Shown here: in pieces, positions 6,197 to 46,344 of the stretch
How the letters are laid out: every line of letters starts with the position of its first letter
How positions within the stretch are numbered: position 1 is the first letter of the stretch
IMG/VR virus record: IMGVR_UViG_3300031520_000006
Coordinates: 1-46,344 of that record
Length of the DNA: 46,344 nucleotides
DNA from: a virus
Lineage: Duplodnaviria > Caudoviricetes
Strand: one strand, 5' to 3'
The notes under the pieces: generated by a model
Databases searched by the model: none
What the model saw: only the letters and a program-made list of their open reading frames with translations
Told to the model about the DNA's origin: nothing
Program-made: the position numbers and the translations under genes

Positions 6197-6439
6197 TTAG
6201 TTGTAGATGCCTTGCTCCTGCTCGGCGATCATGCGTTGTTCGAGCTGTAGACTGCGATACTCTATATCCGATGGATCGACGCAGAAATAATCGCAATGGC
6301 AATTGTGGCAAATATGCGCCTGTGGCTGAATGCGGTCGTAGATGTCTGAGCGCATATAGAAGCGTTCTGCGCATTCCTCGCATGTGAGCTGCACGAGCAT
6401 GTACCCAGGTGACACTTGTGTAATTTTCTTCTGGCTCAT
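6197..6439 (-). CDS. small Cys-rich (zinc-binding) protein
   Basis: CEEC...CHNC motifs; AGGAGG RBS. Confidence 0.7.
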   Translation of the reverse strand: MSQKKITQVSPGYMLVQLTCEECAERFYMRSDIYDRIQPQAHICHNCHCDYFCVDPSDIEYRSLQLEQRMIAEQEQGIYN

Positions 6440-6478
6440 AATTTCCTCCTGGTGGGGGATTGCTCCCCCACGCTCGTG

Positions 6479-7180
6479 CTAGTGCATGATTGAAAATGGA
6501 CGATTGCCATTAAGTGGCAACGCCAGCGGATCGTACTTCTTTGGCTCTGGCTTTGCTTTGAATGCAGAGGCGACGATCTGCCGCTTTGCCAGATACTTGT
6601 CAAGCGCCTCGCCGTGTTTGCACAGGCGATCATTGCCGCACGTGCAGCCAGCCGCGAACTCCTCGCGGATGATAGGCAAGCGGTAGCCGTCCAGCTCGCA
6701 CGCTATGAGCTTGTCGCCTTTGATGATCTCGGTAATCTTTGGCTCCTCGGCGATGGTAGCCGGTGCCCCCTTAGCCGATGATCGACGCGACATCATCGGC
6801 GCGTCGATCACGATGCTCTCAGCCTTGATCTGGATCGTCTGCGATGCTGCGAGCTGCGCGACCTGGCTGCGCAATTCAGCGAGCTGCTGCTCCATCTCCA
6901 GCAGGCGAGCCTTGAGTGTTGCTTCCTCGGCAACTTGTGTAGCCTCCTTTTGTAGCTTTGCATCTCGCATAGCCTCGATCTCGGCGAGCACACGGCGTAC
7001 ATGCTTGCATTCTGGATTCTTGTTGTAACGTGTGTCTGGACAAGAGCAGATCCAACGGCCATTAACCAGGCGCAGGTAGTAGGTGACGCTTGCATCTGAG
7101 TCGCTCTTGATCTTCCAGGTGCGCTCCAGCTCTGGCTTGTTGGTGGCGATGCGTGGAGTCTTGATCTCTGACGTATTCAT
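6479..7180 (-). CDS. SWIM zinc-finger protein (two SWIM-like motifs with coiled coil)
   Basis: WICSCPD..ECKHV and GCTCG..LCKHG. Confidence 0.75.
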   Translation of the reverse strand: MNTSEIKTPRIATNKPELERTWKIKSDSDASVTYYLRLVNGRWICSCPDTRYNKNPECKHVRRVLAEIEAMRDAKLQKEATQVAEEATLKARLLEMEQQLAELRSQVAQLAASQTIQIKAESIVIDAPMMSRRSSAKGAPATIAEEPKITEIIKGDKLIACELDGYRLPIIREEFAAGCTCGNDRLCKHGEALDKYLAKRQIVASAFKAKPEPKKYDPLALPLNGNRPFSIMH

Positions 7181-7264
7181 TGCTATAATCCTTTCGTGTC
7201 CAACTGCTAATTTTTTAGTGGTATCGGTCGCGCTCTATTGGCGTAGAGCGCGACCGTTTTTTTA
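7161..7264 (+). ncRNA. putative antisense sRNA unit (promoter plus terminator)
   Basis: TTGATC-N17-TATAAT (7161-7189, TG-extended), followed by hairpin CGGTCGCGCTCTA/TAGAGCGCGACCG and a T run. Confidence 0.55.
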
Positions 7265-7468
7265 GAGACCGAGATAGCGAGCGTAAACGCGTTCGATGAT
7301 CTTGGATTTATCCTCCTCAACGCCATCCTCGTTGACGTAAGTGATGGCTGCATCCTCGATATGCTCCTCGTCGAGAAGATATTCGTTGATGTGGACAGCC
7401 TTGAAAACGCTGGTGACTTTTGCCTCTGCGACAACATCGCCTTGCGCGTAGCCTTTGACGTAGAACAT
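7262..7468 (-). CDS. hypothetical protein
   Basis: 68 aa, AGGAGG RBS, downstream of the 7517-7554 promoter. Confidence 0.7.
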   Translation of the reverse strand: MFYVKGYAQGDVVAEAKVTSVFKAVHINEYLLDEEHIEDAAITYVNEDGVEEDKSKIIERVYARYLGL

Positions 7469-7516
7469 TGAGTGTTCCTCCTGGTGTACTCCGGCGCAAG
7501 CACTGTACTTGCTCCT

Positions 7517-7554
7517 CTATATATTACGACGTAACAACGTATCAAAAGTAACAT
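7517..7554 (-). promoter_or_regulatory. TGTTAC-N16-CGTC promoter (near-identical to 8537-8574)
   Basis: Direct repeat ATGTTACTTTTG.TACGTTG.TACGTC.TAATATATAG, 1020 bp from the other copy. Confidence 0.65.
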
Positions 7555-7656
7555 AGAATATCCATATGTTTTGGCCTGAGAAGCCAACTCACACGATATC
7601 CACTTGTGCAACAGCCAGCTCTGCGAGACAACACCAGCTTGTGCAACAAACACCAC

Positions 7657-7683
7657 AAAAAGAAGGCCCGCACCAGGCGAGCC
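7657..7683 (-). terminator. A-free intrinsic terminator of the SLOG gene
   Basis: Minus strand GGCTCGC-CTGGT-GCGGGCC-TTCTTTTT; the stem uses a G-U pair. Confidence 0.6.
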
Positions 7684-7703
7684 AAACGAGAGAGAAGCGG
7701 CGA

Positions 7704-8468
7704 CTAGAAGAGACCGAGCTGGGCGAGCGCACCAGGGGCGGGGGGCGGGGAAACAACGAACACAGGCACGCCAGCAGCACGCGCAAGAGAGACCGCCGAC
7801 GCGGTGCCAGCCGAAACGCCGTCCCAAAAGGCCACAACGACAGAGCAGGAGCGAACAAGCGCGCGATTGCGAACGACGCCAGCCAAGCGACCCAGCGCGG
7901 AACCCCAGGCCGCCGGAAACACCGAAACCGACAAGCCGCGAGCAGAAGCAGCACCCTCGGCGACGCGATCCACGCCGCAAGCCCCACCCGACACCACCAC
8001 CACGCCAGCAGGCAGAGCGGCGACAAACGAGCGGACCAGGCCAAGCGCGGAGAACGAGCGCGAGCCGACCACGCCGACCCGGACCGCCGCGCCAACAGGC
8101 GACGACGCGACAGCCGCACCGACCGCCGAGAGCGACGGCTCCAGAGCAGCGGGCGGGGGAGGCGAGGGGGGAGAGAGCCAGACCGCGACGCAAGGGGAGC
8201 CAGCGCCGGGAACGAAGACCGCCAGAGAAGGGCAGACGCAGCCAGCACCACCAGCCGCGCCGCAGCCGCAGGGCCAGGCCGAGACGCGAGCCGGAAGCGC
8301 GAGCAGAGCAGCCGGAGCCGACGCCACAAACGCCGCGACAGGGACAGGAGCGCCGACGCCACAAACGCGAGAAGCGAACGGCACCACACGAGGCGAGACA
8401 AGAGAGGCAGGCAAGGACGCCAGCACGCCAGAGAGAGAAGCAGGAGCCGAAACAACAGAAGCAACCAC
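7704..8468 (-). CDS. adenine-depleted SLOG-family (DprA/YspA/DUF2493-like) protein with C-terminal beta-clamp motif
   Basis: VGVVGSR, SGGACGVD, FPAAW..G..AG..RN and VVAFWDG.S.GT motifs; ends in QLGLF; GTG start with GGGGGT SD. Confidence 0.8.
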   Translation of the reverse strand: MVASVVSAPASLSGVLASLPASLVSPRVVPFASRVCGVGAPVPVAAFVASAPAALLALPARVSAWPCGCGAAGGAGCVCPSLAVFVPGAGSPCVAVWLSPPSPPPPAALEPSLSAVGAAVASSPVGAAVRVGVVGSRSFSALGLVRSFVAALPAGVVVVSGGACGVDRVAEGAASARGLSVSVFPAAWGSALGRLAGVVRNRALVRSCSVVVAFWDGVSAGTASAVSLARAAGVPVFVVSPPPAPGALAQLGLF

Positions 8469-8536
8469 GAGACACCCCCGAACCCGCCGAAGCGGAGAAC
8501 GCCCACGCCCGCGAGCGGGGCCAACAAAAGAACCTT

Positions 8537-8574
8537 CTATATATTAAGACGTAGCAACGTAACAAAAGTAACAT
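8537..8574 (-). promoter_or_regulatory. TGTTAC-N16-CGTC promoter driving the A-free transcript
   Basis: The main A/T-containing island inside the skewed region; matches 7517-7554. Confidence 0.65.
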
Positions 8575-8833
8575 GCAAAAAAGGGCAAAAAACGAGGCCA
8601 GAAGCGGGACGAGCGGGAAAACGAGAGCTCGACGCAAACAGGAACAGAGGGCACAAAGAGCGAGCTGGGCGACGGCGAACGAGGGGACAAACGGGCCGAT
8701 CACCACCCAGGGCGCGAACGAGCAAAAGGCCCCACCGGCACCACGCCCAGCAACACACAAGGCCCCACCGCACCCAGAAAGCAACCGCCGGCCCGGACGC
8801 GGCAGGCCCCCACACACAGAGCACCACACACAC
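8537..8833 (-). CDS. possible second A-poor small protein
   Basis: GAGGTG RBS followed by GTG. The frame is uncertain because stop codons are nearly impossible in A-free sequence. Confidence 0.3.
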   Translation of the reverse strand: MCVVLCVWGPAASGPAVAFWVRWGLVCCWAWCRWGLLLVRALGGDRPVCPLVRRRPARSLCPLFLFASSSRFPARPASGLVFCPFLHVTFVTLLRLNI

Positions 8834-9034
8834 ACACCGTCACCTCGTGGACGTCGAACCAGGGTAGCCCCGCGCAAAAAGGCCACAAGCAGAACGCACC
8901 ACAGCCACGCAAGGCCGAAAACGCGGCGCTGTAACCGTTGAGGAACGCTGTAACGTCCATTCGCCGCGTTTTCGCCCGTTAGGGTTTAGCCTTGCGTGGC
9001 TGTGGTACGATTCTGCATGGCCTTTTTGCTGCGA

Positions 9035-9529
9035 GTGGAACCGTGGAGGTGCGTCAGCCTTGTTACAATCCCACCAGAGGAAGGTGGACAGGGTGGACGC
9101 GCCTCGTGGATACCGGGGTAGGTCAAGCTCGATCCGTGTGGAACCGTGGAGGTGCGCTAGCCTTGTTCTATTCCTCTTGTGGGGACGCGTCAGCTAAGAA
9201 TATCGCGGTAGCGTGCCTTACCCCCGGTAGGGTGTCGCGCCCTACCTCGTTCTCAAAGGGGCGCGACGAGTAGCTCTCTGTCCCTCTCTGCTGCCTTGTC
9301 TGCATCCGAGGCGAATGCCACATGGGTATCATCGGCTCATGGTCCGCGAAAGCGATATCCGAGCACAGGCGGGCGAGAGCAACGCAGGTGGCTGGGTATG
9401 GGTTGTAGGGGCGTTGCGTACCGCCTGTGCGCTCGTGGATACCCCCACCGTGGATGTAATACGCTGTTGCCCTCATGTCCATATGTGGGTATGCGCCAGC
9501 TAAGATAGTCGCGGCAGCGTGCCTTGCCC
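9035..9529. repeat. two pairs of 37-bp imperfect direct repeats in non-coding DNA
   Basis: 9035-9071/9138-9174 (GTGGAACCGTGGAGGTGCG..AGCCTTGTT) and 9187-9223/9493-9529 (GCG.CAGCTAAGA...TCGCGG.AGCGTGCCTT.CCC). Confidence 0.8.
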
Positions 9530-9599
9530 ACGGCAGTGCTACTTTCAACAGCAGCCGCAGCATTCCTTATTTCTATCAATAATCCCGCCGCAGCGGATG

Positions 9600-9788
9600 C
9601 CTTCTCATCTTTCCGAGAGATGCAGTGATGCCATCGCTGAGCAGAGATACTCGGACGGCTCTATAAGCGGCTTGAAGTCGCAATTCTCAAAAAATCTCAC
9701 CCTTTTTACACTCAAATAAGACCTCTAAAACAAGGCTCTCGGAAACCCTTGTATGAAGTGGCTTCCCATGCTATACTATGAGGACAGC
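9600..9788 (+). promoter_or_regulatory. CRISPR leader with sigma70 promoter
   Basis: AT-rich stretch; TTGTAT(9749)-N17-TATACT(9772) with TG extension just before repeat 1. Confidence 0.8.
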
Positions 9789-10553
9789 GTCGGAAGGCTT
9801 GCTCACCCGTTCGCGGGATTGAAACTTCACGTTCGATGAGACGCGCAGCCAACTGGTACGAGTCGGAAGGCTTGCTCACCCGTTCGCGGGATTGAAACTT
9901 TAGGACAGCTTACATCGTGTCAGCACGGTAGACTTGTCGGAAGGCTTGCTCACCCGTTCGCGGGATTGAAACCTGTTTCGTTGTGCGACTCTTCCATTGA
10001 TAATCTCCGTCGGAAGGCTTGCTCACCCGTTCGCGGGATTGAAACTGGGGTACGACAGTGTTAGCGGACGTGAAACAAAGTCGGAAGGCTTGCTCACCCG
10101 TTCGCGGGATTGAAACAGCATATGATCAGTTGGGAGGAGACCTTCTAAAGAGTCGGAAGGCTTGCTCACCCGTTCGCGGGATTGAAACTGCGCTGATAGA
10201 GAGCGACAATGATCTGGATTGCTTGTCGGAAGGACTCTTGACCCGCTTGCGGGATTGAAACGTTCGTGAGGGCGAATACCCGTTCAAGGGGTGCATCGTC
10301 GGAAGGATGGCTCGCCCGTTCGCGGGATTGAAACATTGCATTGTAGTACTGGCTCATCGTCTCTTGGTGCGGTCGGAAGGATGGCTCGCCCGTTCGCGGG
10401 ATTGAAACATAGTACGCGCAATCTGTTCCCACTCAAGGCGTCGGGTCGGAAGGCTTGCTCACCCGTTCGCGGGATTGAAACGGATTAAGCGCGATGAGAT
10501 CTTCGGGAATGTCGAAGTCGGAAGGATGGCTCACCCATTCGCGGGATTGAAAT
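9789..10553 (+). CRISPR. CRISPR array, 11 repeats (37 bp) and 10 spacers (34-37 bp), no cas genes
   Basis: Consensus GTCGGAAGGCTTGCTCACCCGTTCGCGGGATTGAAAC at 9789, 9862, 9936, 10009, 10080, 10152, 10225v, 10298v, 10372v, 10445, 10517v (v = variant); CCCG/CGGG hairpin and ATTGAAAC 3' handle. Confidence 0.98.
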
Positions 10554-25225: not shown

Positions 25226-26601
25226 GGTGGTGCCTCCTTTGCCTGTGGTTGCGTCTTGATCTTCTCAAGTTCCTCGTGAATGTTCACTTCCTCGTTGAAG
25301 CTCTTGAAGAGCAGACGCATCGCGGTCTCGTCGCTGATCCATCCTTGCGACTTCGCGGTAGTAAGCGCACCAGCGATGTAGTTAAGCGCTTGCCCAATCA
25401 TGCCCACGTCGTCCGGGTCGAACTCTGGAAACACGATCTCATACGAGGTATTGATGCGTGGACCAATTTTACCGACCTTGCGGGCCTCCTCGATGACTCT
25501 ATCGAGAATGGCACTCAGCAAATAGCGCATCACCTTCTGCCGACGCTGAAATTTCAACATGGTAGGAAGCCCCATTTCGGCAGCCGTCGCGCGGTTGCCA
25601 TTGGCACCATCGCTCAAGAAGTGCTCTGGTATGGTTGCACCCATTGCCACCATCAGCTTGATCGCCCTGCCGTCTTCGCTAGCGTCGCTGCTATTGATCT
25701 TAGGCTCAACGGCGGTCCAGGTCTCGGCGTCGTTGTGGATGATGATGCTGCCTGGTTCTGGTGGCGACGAGTAATCCATCTGTTTGGCGTTGATGGTTTT
25801 GCGGTCTGCGCCCTTGAGCGTCACGTCCCATAAGAATGCGCCCTTATACTTATTGATTCTGACTCTATCCGTCAACCAGTCCTTATAGCGACGTAACCAA
25901 GGCAGGAGGGTAGCCAGGTCACTCTTGCCACGTTTGGCGTTTGACACTTTATTGATCGCGAACTGTATGACCTCTGTGCCAGCGTCGAACCAGTCGCCTT
26001 GCGTGTCTTGCGTGCGATTGGGGTCGAATGCCGCGGGATCGTCAGCAGTGGCAGACATGACTTGACCAATTGGGCGACGGTGGTAGCGCAGATGATTCTC
26101 GACATCCTCAGGATCGGTCTCGATCTCGTCTATCAAGGATGGGTCGATCTGGCGAATGACCACGGAGCCATCATACTTGTTGATGAAAAAGTGTATGAAC
26201 TGCTCACCATAGAGCGCCAGTTCGTTGCAGATGAGGTACACGCGCTCGTCCATGTGATTTTTCGGGTCGTGCCAGAATGCGTCCAGGAGTGCCTGCACGC
26301 GTGGATTGGCCGCGGAAATAGTGAGGCCCTTGCCAAGCACGAAGCTGGTGGTCATTTCAACAATAGAGAAGGCGATAGGATTGGCGTTATATGCCTCGTA
26401 ACAGGCATTGTGAATCTCTAAATAGGTGCTAGGAATTAAATCTTTTTGGTAGAAATTGTCCGATAAGCGCCGCCAGTAATAGTCTTCCTCGCCGCCCGTG
26501 GCGATGCGCCCCCACAACTGATCTTCCTGGCTGGGAGTGCCAGAGAAGGCAGTGGGGTTGATCTGCTCGGTGATGCGCTTCTCCTTGCTACGTGGTGCCA
26601 T
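25222..26601 (-). CDS. portal protein
   Basis: YNANPIA..IVE..TSFVLGKG, LYGE.F, RGKSDL and GNRATA motifs; size and position fit. Confidence 0.85.
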   Translation of the reverse strand: MAPRSKEKRITEQINPTAFSGTPSQEDQLWGRIATGGEEDYYWRRLSDNFYQKDLIPSTYLEIHNACYEAYNANPIAFSIVEMTTSFVLGKGLTISAANPRVQALLDAFWHDPKNHMDERVYLICNELALYGEQFIHFFINKYDGSVVIRQIDPSLIDEIETDPEDVENHLRYHRRPIGQVMSATADDPAAFDPNRTQDTQGDWFDAGTEVIQFAINKVSNAKRGKSDLATLLPWLRRYKDWLTDRVRINKYKGAFLWDVTLKGADRKTINAKQMDYSSPPEPGSIIIHNDAETWTAVEPKINSSDASEDGRAIKLMVAMGATIPEHFLSDGANGNRATAAEMGLPTMLKFQRRQKVMRYLLSAILDRVIEEARKVGKIGPRINTSYEIVFPEFDPDDVGMIGQALNYIAGALTTAKSQGWISDETAMRLLFKSFNEEVNIHEELEKIKTQPQAKEAPP

Positions 26602-27107
26602 TATGCTCTTTGCTCCTCTCGCTTCGATGCTTCCATGCTCAACCATTTTGTCAGCGCATGACTCACTGCATTGGTTCCTGGAAAAATATCATCAAGTGTA
26701 TCGCCCAGCTCGAGATGAAGGACATCGAAGAGCCAGAAACAGAAGGCTTCAGGCTTTGCCCCTGACAATCCACGCCTGAGCGTAATATTGACGCTGCACC
26801 AGTCGCGTATCGTCTTCTGCTGCCGTGTGCGTTTACGGCCTCCATAGAACAGTACAGGTTCCCATGCGTATGCAGGATTGACGCCTGGCTTAAATGAGCA
26901 GAATGGTTTGACCCATGCTCCTATACGTGTCCCCTGCGGACACCACTGCAAGAGGACAGGTAAGCTCACCGATGTACAGGAAAGCGCCCAACCATCAGGA
27001 TAGTCGCTTACCAGTCTAGTGAGAAGCTCCTCGTGGTCAACCTCTTCTCGCCCGTAATGTTTACGCGCCTGACCTATATATGGTGGGTCTGCATAGGCAA
27101 ACTTCAT
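26601..27107 (-). CDS. small amino-DNA methyltransferase (N6A/N4C)
   Basis: YADPPY catalytic motif, KP...W and DIFPGT SAM-binding-like motif. Confidence 0.75.
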   Translation of the reverse strand: MKFAYADPPYIGQARKHYGREEVDHEELLTRLVSDYPDGWALSCTSVSLPVLLQWCPQGTRIGAWVKPFCSFKPGVNPAYAWEPVLFYGGRKRTRQQKTIRDWCSVNITLRRGLSGAKPEAFCFWLFDVLHLELGDTLDDIFPGTNAVSHALTKWLSMEASKREEQRA

Positions 27108-40942: not shown

Positions 40943-41917
40943 TCATGCTGGCACTTCCTCTCGCGGTACGGTCTCCTCGCCGAGACCCTTCAAGAAGTCG
41001 TAGGCTGATTGGCGTCGTACTCTTGCGCGTTCCGCAAGTCCTGCGCCAGTCAACCGTTCCTGGTTGGCTACCATCTCGCTGTACGCTTGCTCTAATCTGA
41101 TTCGTGATTCTGTTTCATTGGTTATTGGGATACTGAGTGCTTTGAATTGACCATTGGTTCCCAATTGCTCAGTTGTGCTTTCTGTGAGTTCCGTGGAGGT
41201 ATCTTCTGAGATATTCACTACAGTTCCGCGCAGTTCCTGAGCCACTTGAAGGGCATCGACAACGCGCTGCTCTATTGCCTCAAACCGCTTCACCATCAGC
41301 GCATCCAGGTCATTTTTCACCTGGTCCAGTTGCTCTTGTGAGATACCTGGCTTCTCATCGGGAACTTTGGGAACTCCATCATCCTGGCCGCTAAAACTGA
41401 TGTTTTTCGTGCGGCACATGACCACGTAGCCAACGGCGACGAGGGAGCGTAATGCCGACATCATGTAGGGGAGCCAGGCCAGTGATGAGGTGATCTGTGT
41501 TTCGCCGATGCCGATGCTGTGTGCTATGAGTTGGAGGAAGAGCATCGTCATGCCCACCAGGGCCAGGAGCAATGCAAGTATGCCATAAATCCAGACCTTT
41601 GCCTTATCCTTGCCTCGTATGCTCTGGAAGGCATACACGAGCGTGACGCCTGCCGAGGTTTCTATTGCTATAGCCTGTGTCCACGACCAGGTGAGTGCGA
41701 GCGTGGGATTATCGCGCATCACTTGGCCGTCACTCAAGAAGTCGGCCGCCGAGACGACCAAGCCAGCCGCAAGCAGTGGTTCGCTGGTCTTGGCGACGAA
41801 CTTAAAGAGAAAATCTATGCTCTCGTCGTACCAGCCGAGCGAAACAAAGCTGCGCCAGATGTTTGCAGCTCGCTGCCACTTGCTGAGAGACGTTGGTTGC
41901 TCCTGTACTACTGCCAT
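40943..41917 (-). CDS. 4-TM membrane protein with C-terminal HTH (Spd-like architecture)
   Basis: Four hydrophobic segments, a coiled coil and LTGAGLAERARVRRQSA HTH. Confidence 0.7.
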   Translation of the reverse strand: MAVVQEQPTSLSKWQRAANIWRSFVSLGWYDESIDFLFKFVAKTSEPLLAAGLVVSAADFLSDGQVMRDNPTLALTWSWTQAIAIETSAGVTLVYAFQSIRGKDKAKVWIYGILALLLALVGMTMLFLQLIAHSIGIGETQITSSLAWLPYMMSALRSLVAVGYVVMCRTKNISFSGQDDGVPKVPDEKPGISQEQLDQVKNDLDALMVKRFEAIEQRVVDALQVAQELRGTVVNISEDTSTELTESTTEQLGTNGQFKALSIPITNETESRIRLEQAYSEMVANQERLTGAGLAERARVRRQSAYDFLKGLGEETVPREEVPA

Positions 41918-41937
41918 GGAATCTATCCTTTCATAAG

Positions 41938-42032
41938 GCGTCTGATCGTCTGTCTGTCTGACTGTCTAGCCCTGTCTACAGGCCATGCGTGTGCTTACTG
42001 GAGGCTGCGTCCGACAGCAGACGACAGACGAC
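41938..42032. repeat. cluster of short (C/T)GTCT(G/A) direct and inverted repeats
   Basis: CGTCTGATCGTCTGTCTGTCTGACTGTCTAGCCCTGTCTA...CAGCAGACGACAGACGA. Confidence 0.75.
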
Positions 42033-43534
42033 TATGCCTCTATCAATCTGCGCTCTTTTAACTGCTTTATGTAGGTCCCTGCTGTATCTTTGCCCACACC
42101 CAACTGCCTGCCCAACTCTCGATAGCTCATACCTGGCTCGTAGAGTTCTAATGCTCGTTGCAGTTCTATCGGTAACTTCGTAGTAAAGCTGCCGGTTGCA
42201 TATGTTGGTGCTGGTGTTTCTGGAATGCTTGGAACGGGAAGCCTGGGCTCGGTATGAGGCAAGTGCTGTTTCTGCGCCAGGTATCGACGCATATTCGCTA
42301 GCCCTGGCGTGTGCGCTCCATGTGGAGAGTTGCGCTTCCGTATCTGATGCACGCCTCGCACTCCTGGCCCAATCACAACCGCCTCTCCGCGTCCTAGTGC
42401 CATTGCCACATCGCGGCCTATGCCCTGCTCCGCATACCGTGCGAGCGAAGGCCCCTCGTTCTGTTTCATATAGAATTTCCAGTTGGCGGCCATCGCACGT
42501 TTATCGAGGTCGGCGATCATCTGGCTGGCGAAGATGAAGCCAATGCCATACTTGCGGCCACGTCGTACCACCAGGTCGAAGAATGCGTTTTGCAACCTGG
42601 CTAAAAGCGTGATCCCTTCCTCATCCTTCTCTTTCGTGAGCATGCTTTCATTCTCGCGCTGCGGCAGCCACACATGCGCCTCGTCAAGAATAGCCGCACA
42701 CGGAATGCGCTCCTCCTGTGGCCGCTCCTCTTGCCACTCATGCATGCCGTGAATGATCTCGATCATCACCAGCGCGGCGGTATTGATGGTGCCATACGAT
42801 TGCAGGTTGAGCACCACCTGTAGCCCATCGTCGAGGATCATGTGCCCGAATGCACGCGCGTTCTCTGGTGTCACACTGCTAGCATGAGCGATATATGGCC
42901 TTCTCAGGTACCGCTTATCACACAGCGGCTCATATTCTCCCTCGGTGTCACAGAGCAAAAAGGGTATTTCTAGCTTCCCCAGTTCCTCGCCGATGACCGC
43001 AACGGTATTGCTTTTGCCTGCATCAGGAATACCAAAGATCGACACACGGCCAGAGAGCATCGCGTCCGCATGCGGGAAGAGCGTCTGCGATAAAAACAGA
43101 TGGTCTCTATATACGTGAGGGTTGTATATCTCTGGCATCGAGAGCGTTGTAAGTTCCTCTGTCTTGCTCTCCTCCTCATCATTCACAGCCTGTCTATCCT
43201 CCTCAACTGACTCACTCCCGATACCCTCATCCAGCGGACCCAGTAACGCGCCCCAGTTGGCCGAACGTATTCGGTCCATCATCGGCAGATGGGGCATATG
43301 GCCGTTTGCCTTTTGCTGCTCAAGCACATGCTTCCCAACCAGTCCAACAGCACCCACGCCAACAGCACCCACAACCATGCCAGTAAAGCCCAGGTGCAGT
43401 AGCTCCGCTGCCCCTGCGAGAAATGGCAGTCCTACAAAACCCGCTGCGATCCCTATTTGCGTGCTTGTACTCATATCCATGAGGCCACCACTATCCTCTT
43501 GTAGCTCCTGGTTTGTGGTTTTCTCTTCTCTCAT
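42032..43534 (-). CDS. HerA/FtsK-superfamily ATPase with N-terminal TMs and C-terminal wHTH
   Basis: GIPDAGKS, ILDEAH, RGRKYG and ASQ motifs; SYRELGRQLGVGKDTA HTH. Confidence 0.85.
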   Translation of the reverse strand: MREEKTTNQELQEDSGGLMDMSTSTQIGIAAGFVGLPFLAGAAELLHLGFTGMVVGAVGVGAVGLVGKHVLEQQKANGHMPHLPMMDRIRSANWGALLGPLDEGIGSESVEEDRQAVNDEEESKTEELTTLSMPEIYNPHVYRDHLFLSQTLFPHADAMLSGRVSIFGIPDAGKSNTVAVIGEELGKLEIPFLLCDTEGEYEPLCDKRYLRRPYIAHASSVTPENARAFGHMILDDGLQVVLNLQSYGTINTAALVMIEIIHGMHEWQEERPQEERIPCAAILDEAHVWLPQRENESMLTKEKDEEGITLLARLQNAFFDLVVRRGRKYGIGFIFASQMIADLDKRAMAANWKFYMKQNEGPSLARYAEQGIGRDVAMALGRGEAVVIGPGVRGVHQIRKRNSPHGAHTPGLANMRRYLAQKQHLPHTEPRLPVPSIPETPAPTYATGSFTTKLPIELQRALELYEPGMSYRELGRQLGVGKDTAGTYIKQLKERRLIEA

Positions 43535-43543
43535 GACTCTCCT

Positions 43544-44110
43544 CTATGCGCTGGCCGTTGGTCGAAACACGACGGCTAAGACTTTCTCCAATCGAGAGAA
43601 GCCACGAATACCTAAGAAGATGCTACCTGCACTCATAGCCGCTATGTAACACAGCGAAACGAGCCAGCCAGCATTGCCCCAATTGAAAATCCACAGGAAC
43701 GCGCCGCCTATGTTTGTGTTGGTGGCGACGCTGTACCAGAGGTCGGTCACAACCTCCAGAATAAAAAATCCCCAGATGATGAGCCGATGCAGCAATTTAT
43801 TGTGGATCGGGCTTCCTGGCAGTGCTGCGCCCCAATAGATGATTTGGGTGATGAACGCAACCGTCCAGGCAATACGGTTGTATTTATCCATATTGCTGTT
43901 GAGGAAGTTGAGTAATTCCTGAGCGCTGATATGCGACGGAACGATGGTGCCGCCTTGCAGAATGCCTACAATGCTGTCGTGCGTCGTTATAAGCTGCTGG
44001 AATGAGCAGTAGACCCATGCTCCAATCTCAGCAAGTGCGTACAGGCCAACCGCAAGTGTGAGCCGCTCGCCAGGACGCCCTGCTGTCGCTGTTGTTGTTG
44101 TTCCACGCAT
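43544..44110 (-). CDS. multi-pass membrane protein
   Basis: About four hydrophobic helices. Confidence 0.75.
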   Translation of the reverse strand: MRGTTTTATAGRPGERLTLAVGLYALAEIGAWVYCSFQQLITTHDSIVGILQGGTIVPSHISAQELLNFLNSNMDKYNRIAWTVAFITQIIYWGAALPGSPIHNKLLHRLIIWGFFILEVVTDLWYSVATNTNIGGAFLWIFNWGNAGWLVSLCYIAAMSAGSIFLGIRGFSRLEKVLAVVFRPTASA

Positions 44111-44112
44111 GG

Positions 44113-44436
44113 CTACACCTCCTCCGAGCGGATGTACACGCTGTAATCTTCTACAAGGTCTTCATCTCGCAAAATGGCGAGAAAGAGCGGATTGATCTCA
44201 CACTCTTCCCATTCCAGGATGATGTAGCCGAGTCCAGCTTTGGATGAGATGCCGCTATCGACCAGGATCACCTCGTCTCGGCCTTCAAACCAGCTCTCGA
44301 TTTTTTTGATGAACCATTCTCGCTGCGCTACGGGAACCGTGAAATGCACGCCTTGCAACATGCCTGGCTCCAATATGCGTTCAGTCTCTGTTGGCAGAAC
44401 CTCAGAACCGAATGAATAAGGTATCAATTCTGTCAT
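44113..44436 (-). CDS. hypothetical protein
   Basis: 107 aa, AAGGAG RBS. Confidence 0.7.
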   Translation of the reverse strand: MTELIPYSFGSEVLPTETERILEPGMLQGVHFTVPVAQREWFIKKIESWFEGRDEVILVDSGISSKAGLGYIILEWEECEINPLFLAILRDEDLVEDYSVYIRSEEV

Positions 44437-44599
44437 GTACTTTCTCCTTGCTGGCCGGGTTTGCTATAATCGCGCTTACCAGCCAGCGCGTCCGTTTAAC
44501 TACTTCGCGTTGGTGAGCTCCGCCACGCTGGTCCTAACAGCGTGGCGGAGCGGCTGTACTCCTTGAAAGTCCTACTCAATTCCCTTCCACTTGCTAAAT

Positions 44600-44825
44600 A
44601 GATGCGTATGTATGTATCATCAGGGCGCGTGGCACACGGGGATCGCTTCCCCTGGCGTCGAGAACCCTGTGGTGTATGTGTGCCTTGTGCATTTCGCATT
44701 AAATGGGTCGCAGACTGCGCTAAACCTAATAATGAGCTGGACACCCGTAAGGGAAAATCTTCGCCTATATATGGTCCGCTGTCCGCACAGCGTCGCCACG
44801 CAATTCTATTTGTCGAGAAAGAATA
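44600..44825 (+). ncRNA. candidate bridge RNA of the IS110 element
   Basis: Non-coding left end with stems enclosing large loops (GGCACAC...GTGTGCC); IS110 elements are known to encode bridge RNAs in this position. Confidence 0.5.
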
Positions 44826-44828
44826 GGT

Positions 44829-46220
44829 ATGAATGATTTCTACGAGATACTGTATGTCGGTATTGATATTGGCAAAGCTCGCCATGTGGCAGGCTTTGTC
44901 TCGGACGCACTCTTCTCGCGATACCGCCGCTTCGAGCGGTGTCCCGTCCTCAGCTTTGAGCAATCGCGAGCAGGATTTGAGCGACTGCTGGCTGCCATCG
45001 AGACCTATGGTCCGCTTGATCGCTGCGCCGTGGTCATGGAGCACACAGGCCATTACCATAGACTGGTTGAGCAATACCTGCTTGAGCACAACATCGCCCT
45101 GTACGAAATTCATGCGCAAAAGCGTGAACACCGTGACAAGACCGATAAGCGCGACGCGCTCTCGCTGGCGAACCACCTGTATAACCAGCTTGCAAAGGGT
45201 GTCCAATTCTCTGAAACCATCAAGCTTGCTCGTCGTGTGCTGCCGCCAACGGAAACCGCGACGTACCTTCGCAGCCTCGTGAAGCATCGCGAGGTCCTCT
45301 CGCGCGAGATCACACAACGCAAAAACAACTTGATCGCGATCTGCGATGAGGTGTTTCCTGAGCTGACCCACATCATCAAAGACACCAATGGTGCCACAGC
45401 ACTCAACATTCGAGAGAAGTTCCCAACGGCGGCTTCCATTGCGGCGGCCTCTCTCGACGAGTTGCGAACATGCCGCATCAATTACCGTCCAACTGATAGG
45501 CAGTTTGAGGAACTGCACGACCTGGCGACACAGAGCATTGGAACCCGTGATCCAGGCCGCATCAAGAGTCTGACGATGCAGCAAAAGCACTTGATCAAAG
45601 AGCTCAGACTGCTCCAACAGCATACTGAAGAGATTGATGGAGAGATCACTACTGCGCTGAAGAATTCGCGTGAAGGGCAGATACTTGACAGCCTGCCAAT
45701 CTTTGGACCTGTGCAATCGGCCACGCTGATCGCCAGCATTGGCAACATTCACAATTTCTCGCGACAATCGGAACTCAAGTCCTACTGTGGCTGGTCTCCG
45801 ACCACTGTGCAGACCGGCACCAGTGTGGACCAGGTGAAACTCACTAAAGGCGGCAATCCTGTACTCAAACGCATGATATACCTGGTCACGATGAGCGCCA
45901 TAAAGCTTGATACCGAATGGCGCGATCTGTATAACCGATTGGTCCCAATAAAGTGCAATTACGATACGCGCACGAAGGCTTTTCGTGGTAGAATGAAGGT
46001 AGTTGGTCGGGTTGCAGGGCAAATTATTTCTTTGGTCTACACTCTGCTCAAAAAGGATGCCGACATTTTGGCAAGCCTTGCTGAGGGAGAGGAGCCACCG
46101 CCACCGATGCTCTATGATCGCGCACTGCATCACGCACATCGACATGGCAGCTACCGACGTGCTGACAGCGTGCCACTTGGCAGCCCGATTGCTCTTACGG
46201 AGTTTCTCCATAATGAGTAA
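44829..46220 (+). CDS. IS110-family transposase/recombinase
   Basis: GIDIGK, MEHTG.Y and KTDKRDA (DEDD RuvC-like); C-terminal SYCGWSP...QTG..KGGN. Confidence 0.95.
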   Translation: MNDFYEILYVGIDIGKARHVAGFVSDALFSRYRRFERCPVLSFEQSRAGFERLLAAIETYGPLDRCAVVMEHTGHYHRLVEQYLLEHNIALYEIHAQKREHRDKTDKRDALSLANHLYNQLAKGVQFSETIKLARRVLPPTETATYLRSLVKHREVLSREITQRKNNLIAICDEVFPELTHIIKDTNGATALNIREKFPTAASIAAASLDELRTCRINYRPTDRQFEELHDLATQSIGTRDPGRIKSLTMQQKHLIKELRLLQQHTEEIDGEITTALKNSREGQILDSLPIFGPVQSATLIASIGNIHNFSRQSELKSYCGWSPTTVQTGTSVDQVKLTKGGNPVLKRMIYLVTMSAIKLDTEWRDLYNRLVPIKCNYDTRTKAFRGRMKVVGRVAGQIISLVYTLLKKDADILASLAEGEEPPPPMLYDRALHHAHRHGSYRRADSVPLGSPIALTEFLHNE

Positions 46221-46344
46221 TGCGGGTGTAAAGGACCGGGGATGCTTCTGGAAACCCAATACAAGCCATGCGCGCCAGGTATGCTGCCACAACATACATA
46301 CGCAGCATATGCTGTTAAACCAATTGACATAAGGCGCAAAGGTG

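Follow-up and report, generated by a model that had tools for sequence, protein, structure and literature searches.

Ribonucleases of the MazF type cut RNA at ACA or UA and those of the Csx1 type at A; in phages T7 and T5 the pre-early region is a first-made unit that precedes the early genes. CmdT targets GA in mRNA and modifies the A at N6, by which translation is blocked (PMC11618068, accessible part); DarT2 modifies thymidine in single-stranded DNA during anti-phage defence and needs TNTC or TCTN (PMC12945103, accessible part). ShosA is described as an antitoxin acting through DNA binding and repair (PMC11961720 and PMC12961424, both in part), and viral SLOG proteins were proposed to counter or process ADP-ribose derivatives (PMC9503650, in part); the accessible portion of PMC11833690 contains no mention of SLOG. 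For plasmid leading regions an altered composition was reported, with GC richness and palindrome depletion (bioRxiv 10.1101/2025.04.03.647016, in part). No published description of adenine-free genes in phages or plasmids was found in the literature covered, subscription journals and supplements lying mostly outside that coverage.

The DNA analysed (below, the window) was the whole IMG/VR record IMGVR_UViG_3300031520_000006, 46,344 nt, a 46.3-kb temperate tailed phage of soil or rock with terminase, portal, capsid, tail, holin and integrase genes; its terminase is 58–67% identical to genes of Ktedonobacteria, which suggests this class as host. One of its genes has a message strand almost without A, and the depletion is real and conserved. 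The CDS (8468→7704, minus strand, 765 nt, 254 aa) contains 9 A in all; avoidable A, calculated from the phage's own codon usage and the protein sequence: 0 observed, 70.7 expected (log10 P = −39.5); expectation for T-free runs of at least 394 nt in the phage genome: ~10^−48. On recount, the T's of the plus strand fell at exactly the nine positions given in the initial annotation, and its T-free run of 394 nt (8141–8534) was reproduced without change. All 9 A's of the CDS sit where the residue or the stop codon demands A; the absence of K, I, Y, H and internal M from the protein, the GTG start, the Shine–Dalgarno sequence GGGGGT (8479–8474) and a G-U pair in the terminator (one, in the stem 7683–7665) were likewise found as annotated. 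The read support, questioned at that stage, was checked on an independently assembled Logan contig of run X1, which spans 6400–9818 at a flat depth of 29.9 with zero differences from the window; X1 is the sole run holding the region and possibly the source sample, and is therefore not an independent sample. This matching contig, together with four other loci showing the purge, rules out an assembly artefact. A second, more abundant contig of the same run (record 2, 17,918 nt) has short pieces of the early gene and the promoter motif in common with the window and, judged by these, would be a related phage.

The limits first given to the island (7643..8534) were too narrow. The minus strand is A-poor also over ~8930–8576 (9 A in 355 nt, 1.5–2.8%), and the purge spans ~8930→7643, a unit of ~1.3 kb that includes ~350 nt of non-coding DNA; nor is the loss of A confined between promoter and terminator, since the purge crosses both. 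A content of the minus strand: P1, 26.8% (41 nt); leader, 0%; CDS, 1.2%; stop codon to 7643, 0%; beyond, 23–28%; early genes after P2, 27.8%.

Elements follow each other on the minus strand in the order terminase, CRISPR array, hairpin, A-free non-coding DNA, P1, leader, gene, terminator, P2 and early genes; the supposed place of the gene at the head of the early region is thus borne out, as it precedes the early operon. At its upstream edge the island has a long imperfect inverted repeat (8870..9035; fold z = −11.2; stability reached by 0 of 200 shuffles) that had been overlooked. Its inner arm, within the island, is stripped of A, and the arms differ at A's only; the outer arm carries on the T-free strand an extended −10-like element with a putative promoter role. 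In L001 a different hairpin is found at the same place (z = −7.4). Just right of the hairpin axis the plus strand is A-poor too (8955–9060, 10%); two direct-repeat pairs (9032/9135 and 9178/9484, within 9032–9536) lie between hairpin and array, and the array (9789–10553) consists of 11 repeats of 37 nt and 10 spacers, with no cas gene among the ORFs scanned.

The purged upstream region (8576..8930, minus strand) is apparently non-coding: codon-signal z 0.2–0.3 vs. 3.3–5.9 in true CDS parts; a 45-codon frame within it (8835–8700) gave no codon signal. It is followed by P1 (8535..8575, minus strand), a promoter-like repeat that is 92% identical to P2 and the sole element inside the purged block to keep its A's (11 of 41). 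In L001, L012, L018, L019 and L058 the P1 motif is found ahead of the SLOG gene, the early operon or both; it was not scored as a canonical sigma-70 promoter, and a promoter role is suggested by its position. The 5′ leader (8469..8534, minus strand) has 0 A in 66 nt, and L001 has a similar one. Downstream of the CDS (7704..8468) are an A-free intrinsic terminator (7655..7683, minus strand), an 11-nt motif in two copies at the downstream edge of the purge (7603..7648, minus strand), with a related motif at the island edge in L001, L018 and L019, and P2 (7516..7556, minus strand), placed before early genes of normal composition (a 68-aa ORF and a SWIM-finger gene). The structure of the mRNA was ordinary (−396.9 vs. 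−391.3 ± 10.1, 15 shuffles). Boundaries of the purge: in L019 and L022, a sharp end at the stop codon; in the window, a start directly after P1; in the window, L001 and L018, an overrun of the terminator by 14–120 nt; in the window, L001 and L019, an extension of 55–517 nt beyond P1 on its upstream side; in L018, A is regained in the leader and the first 22 codons.

Relatives were collected in homologue scans of DNA giving 8 loci (one A-free, L001), 8 loci (one of them L001 again) and 7 loci (the window itself, the three A-free loci L018, L019 and L022, and three normal ones). Conservation of the A-depletion in homologues was thereby established at four other loci; avoidable A, observed/expected: L001, 3/53.9; L018, 16/77.8; L022, 2/43.3; L019, 2/39.4 and 0/38.1. 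The element-like contig L058 has a partial loss (27 vs. 39.8 expected). Scanning of 169 Ktedonobacteria genomes gave five matches, L058 and four chromosomal Dictyobacter genes, one in Dictyobacter kobayashii and three with the same gene context. Avoidable A in the four chromosomal orthologues was normal: 45/36.9, 39/40.2, 46/38.1 and 30/37.3. They retain the N-terminal helix and the QxxLF tail, and their SLOG motifs are decayed; they are a domesticated phage gene that has regained adenine and kept the clamp motif. Since A is normal in these copies, a force acting on the mobile copies maintains the purge, its action being limited to the time in which the gene is mobile or retains its function. 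The chromosomal orthologues (L056, L059, L060 and L061) adjoin an AI-2E-type membrane gene.

A common layout (promoter motif, SLOG gene, terminator, promoter copy, SWIM-type early gene) was found in L001, L018, L019 and L058, and the three phage records have one island each, always at the same position. One of the three, the close relative L012, has no more than A-poor remnants at the island place, and its SLOG gene, of normal A content, lies 2 kb away. At the protein level, 27 of 160 homologues have fewer than 20% A-requiring residues and 133 are ordinary, the 160 being the best matches of 26,443 at E up to 0.001, a biased set, as the profile was built from A-poor sequences. The L012 gene and the 133 ordinary homologues mean that the SLOG fold has no need of the purge; a further 20 Chloroflexota SLOG loci were of normal composition. 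No A- or T-free window was present at 32 terminase loci (6 viral, 26 genomic), and no island was found in cultured plasmids or phages; a degenerate motif scan of viral contigs, scans with P0012 and the SWIM protein, and the first genome scan gave no matches. Terminase genes 50–72% identical to the phage's occur without an island in many Ktedonobacteria genomes (L030–L044, L054); they are possibly domesticated prophages or transfer agents. Two perfect palindromes, which we take to be parS-like, flank the A-free gene of L018 (1866 and 2976), and a phage-plasmid is therefore suggested. Opposite the island position, L093 (2157–3221) and L085 (675–1688) carry a DSGAY-motif gene with no Pfam match, presumably TGT/DpdA-like; this slot, occupied by C5 and N6 methylases in L001 and by the CRISPR array in the window, is a variable DNA-protection slot.

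The SLOG identity of the protein was upheld: Pfam LDcluster4, 29.9 bits (cut-off 26.3), YAcAr and DprA models matching below cut-off; SLOG (DprA-like Rossmann) domain, aa 128–241 (7746..8087, minus strand), AlphaFold pLDDT >90; nearest solved folds, ShosA 8zva, Z 13.8 (rmsd 3.6, 124 aligned), and DprA 3maj, Z 13.1 (rmsd 2.4, 115 aligned); nearest viral models, small YAcAr/DUF2493 proteins. The initial annotation missed a conserved N-terminal domain with four cysteines (aa 1–100; 8169..8468, minus strand; codon signal z 5.9), predicted to bind metal. All 8 sequences aligned, among them two near-duplicates, have C67, C69, C77 and C79, and L019 encodes this domain in an ORF of its own, complete with SD and stop, from which residues 1–100 are judged to be a second, real domain. 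Its model has pLDDT 68, and the best structural match reached Z 4.0, with no SAM domain among the matches; no Atlas match, no stand-alone homologue at 72–231 aa and no fold match above Z 4.0 were obtained, a missing match that does not demonstrate a new fold. The C-terminal QLGLF (7707..7721, minus strand), passed over as incidental, fits the clamp-binding consensus QxxLF (PMC12309361, accessible part), and a QxxLF tail occurs in 17 of 30 low-A homologues (two near-duplicates) vs. 5 of 132 others; it is a predicted docking motif for the beta-clamp (DnaN), and this match would be why the CDS keeps the A of its Gln.

The character of the force was assessed in six A-free reading frames at their fourfold sites: A preceded by C, 12 vs. 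148 expected; by T, 0 vs. 24.6 (262 sites); by G, 0 vs. 33.2 (197 sites). The residual A's thus all follow C (12 of 12, P ~0.02), a weak hint towards RNA enzymes directed at GA or UA. At fourfold sites giving an isolated template T, 3 A were observed vs. 92.8 expected. As A is lost across contexts, a single motif-specific enzyme is a strained explanation and avoidance of UV dimers is ruled out, sites without a template dipyrimidine being purged (3 vs. 92.8) and AA being enriched among the residual A's. A codon or tRNA cause alone is ruled out by the purged non-coding DNA (codon-signal z of the upstream A-free stretches: window, 319 nt, 0.2; L001, 400 nt, 1.2; L022, 215 nt, −0.3); loss of tRNA-Lys, suggested earlier, is for the same reason insufficient. 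A phage-made modified thymine, by analogy with Z-phages, found no modification gene among the 48 ORFs scanned, unannotated ORFs remaining.

Tentatively, the gene is best read as a self-protecting antidote message immune to adenine-directed cutting or modification of RNA. It would be a first-expressed counter-defence gene whose RNA survives host enzymes acting at adenines; early transcription would start at P1 and possibly, for a longer RNA, at the hairpin as well. Varied A-containing targets of RNases and ADP-ribosylation (GA for CmdT, ACA/UA for MazF-type and A for Csx1-type enzymes) may sum to selection against A in all contexts. That the coding strand dropped A and not T would be due to the codons left: without A the residues V, L, F, W and C are still encoded, whereas without T there would be no hydrophobic core. 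The SLOG/DprA-fold product, predicted to dock on the replication clamp, may protect or repair phage DNA at forks or remove ADP-ribose-type products.

The purge starting right after P1 in the window and ending at the stop codon in L019 and L022 is as expected if expression is selected. CmdT provides a precedent for attack on mRNA directed at adenine (PMC11618068). Type III Cas10 was above cut-off in 50 of 169 Ktedonobacteria genomes, which is permissive evidence only (this tally and that of DarT below include the unpublished genomes G117, G081 and G125). Several observations count against the RNA-level reading: the upstream purge would need an upstream transcript, and the promoter-like arm on the island side is without its −10 A's; enzymes known to act at A recognise particular motifs, whereas CA, TA and GA have alike been lost; among the A's that are left, GA is the most frequent context (30 of 78); the clamp motif indicates DNA, not RNA; the 7-A run tolerated by the L001 CDS is a would-be target of A-run RNases; and the normal-A SLOG gene of L012 and the ordinary homologues show a fold independent of the purge.

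The main rival, which we regard as possible but unlikely, places the attack on thymine of the template: a T-free template would stay readable under DarT2-type ADP-ribosylation of single-stranded DNA or under uracil incorporation and excision, and the clamp-docked SLOG protein would be an antidote at the fork. The clamp motif and the purge of the non-coding flank both fit this better than the RNA-level reading; ShosA, the closest solved fold, is by the accessible accounts a DNA-binding/repair antitoxin, and DarT was found in 37 of 169 Ktedonobacteria genomes, so that with Cas10 and DarT this class has both kinds of pressure. The need of DarT2 for TNTC or TCTN, as given in the available part of its source, is at odds with the purge of isolated-T sites; the 7-A run of L001 is T7 on the template, which counts against template-T damage; and, the opposite strand being T-rich, replication would still be blocked. 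Of the causes listed in the initial annotation, A-specific attack on RNA and DarT-type template modification are thus kept as candidates. RNA-level and template-T readings follow one logic, deletion of the attacked base, and the two taken jointly are on balance slightly favoured.

That the T-free strand, as single-stranded DNA, folds its hairpin into an Frpo-like promoter and templates ATP/dATP-free RNA or a first DNA strand under adenine-nucleotide depletion is an improbable reading. Both the window and L001 do have a strong hairpin at the edge of the island, and in each the arm with the better −10 would be non-template if the T-free strand folded; the DprA-like fold and the clamp motif suit handling of single-stranded DNA, and HerA/FtsK-like and membrane genes are present in the phage. 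On the other hand, the 48 ORFs scanned include no relaxase or rolling-circle Rep, the outer arms have possible ordinary uses (a methylase operon in L001, the CRISPR array in the window), the window hairpin is more stable on the A-free strand (−74.5 vs. −68.4 kcal/mol), and a hairpin of this length could be demonstrated in neither L018 nor L019. ATP depletion, one of the causes first proposed, is unlikely on general grounds, because translation needs ATP and low ATP would stop it before transcription. The HerA/FtsK-like ATPase lies with membrane-protein genes at 40943–44436, a group also present in G525 and resembling, if the label is apt, a mycelial DNA-spreading module within a tailed phage.

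More doubtful is the proposal that the first-entering DNA is invisible to m6A-based restriction, A on one strand only leaving no two-strand (type I, palindromic) or head-to-head (type III) targets. The phage is indeed under heavy restriction pressure (6-bp palindromes outside the island: 276 observed vs. 641 expected), A..T pairs at type I spacing number 25/kb vs. 372/kb (a drop that follows directly from the purge), the L001 island is flanked by C5 and N6 methylases, the chromosomal copies regain A, and DprA of H. pylori is reported to shield DNA from restriction (PMC3597690, in part). Avoidance of palindromes, as put forward in the initial annotation, is nevertheless weak as a cause: their 6-bp density is 5.6/kb in the island vs. 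6.3/kb elsewhere, and GC-only restriction sites are 1.6–4 times denser there, among them sites that the genome avoids (CCGG, 6.4 vs. 1.5/kb; GGCC, 11.2 vs. 3.6; GGNCC, 8.0 vs. 2.3). The island carries two 6-bp palindromes missing from the remainder of the genome, and residual A's in 4-bp palindromes are near chance (19 vs. 24.6); staged entry and a known genome end would moreover be needed, and the phage records are linear or provirus without end repeats. Over the whole genome, 15 of the 64 6-bp palindromes are absent outside island and array. A small protein with a DPPY motif and no family match (26601–27107) is presumably adenine-methylase-like; at 44496–46295 a long minus-strand ORF gives the impression of an antisense shadow of a plus-strand insertion-sequence transposase.

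Least probable is mutational loss, in which RNA was repeatedly copied back by an adenine-mutagenic (DGR-like) reverse transcriptase and purifying selection spared the essential A's: strand-specific, context-free loss of sense-strand A is predicted by it and the hairpin arms differ at A's only, but a template repeat of the gene is missing from the window, the purged block encloses P1 and sequence upstream of it, islands are single in each genome and constant in position, and a phage-borne enzyme is excluded or weakened by the finding of PF00078 in 0 of 3 phage records, action in trans being possible.

The island is real, conserved and unaccounted for by known systems; the present analysis adds chromosomal orthologues as controls, the clamp motif, a second A-free domain, the purge of non-coding DNA and the tests of sequence context. 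We lean towards the view that phages keep a three-letter (C, G, U) first message and a protein built of ~ten kinds of amino acid, an antidote untouchable by every defence that acts on RNA adenine or template thymine; evasion would here, somewhat more probably than otherwise, consist in removal of a base from the alphabet and not of a motif from the sequence. Avoidance of motifs by invaders is known; a working gene stripped of an entire base on one strand would take evasion to a new level and, if true, implies strong host pressure on adenine in RNA or thymine in DNA. The locus also offers natural folded proteins of a reduced amino-acid alphabet, with orthologues of normal composition as controls, and a design rule for messages resisting A-directed toxins. 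Comparison of the native with a synonymously A-restored allele would name the responsible defence in one step.

In comparison with known systems, DGR variable regions share strand-specific adenine loss with the island, which differs in comprising a whole 1.3-kb unit with non-coding DNA, without template repeat or reverse transcriptase. ShosA/PsyrA DprA-like antitoxins and DprA are the best solved-structure matches (Z 13.8 and 13.1), and 19 and 23 of 30 family members gave weak PADLOC matches; the window protein is half their size, phage-borne and without an adjacent toxin, no PRTase/RecQ toxin gene (ShosTA/PsyrTA) standing beside it (neighbours: hairpin and CRISPR array, 68-aa ORF and SWIM gene), and at 23.5 bits against a cut-off of 191.15 for the DprA equivalog TIGR00732 it is not DprA proper. 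Small viral SLOGs (YAcAr/DUF2493, LDcluster4; PHROG 289) have the same fold and the motifs GSR, G.D, RN and WDG.S.GT in common with it, and a counter-defence role like that suggested here was proposed for them (PMC9503650, in part); the A-free message, the composition of ten residue types, the four-cysteine N-domain and the QxxLF tail set the window gene apart from most homologues. As to Frpo-type promoters, stable hairpins were found (window, L001), and no relaxase or single-stranded stage among the 48 ORFs scanned; the ends of the phage records were classed linear or provirus, without end repeats. One-strand loss of a whole base is not among the traits given for plasmid leading regions in the accessible part of bioRxiv 10.1101/2025.04.03.647016, where the word adenine does not occur. 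With the pre-early regions of T7/T5 and the leading regions of conjugative plasmids with Frpo promoters the window shares an altered composition, a separate first unit placed before the early genes and having its own putative promoter and a terminator, a hairpin and a putative counter-defence cargo.
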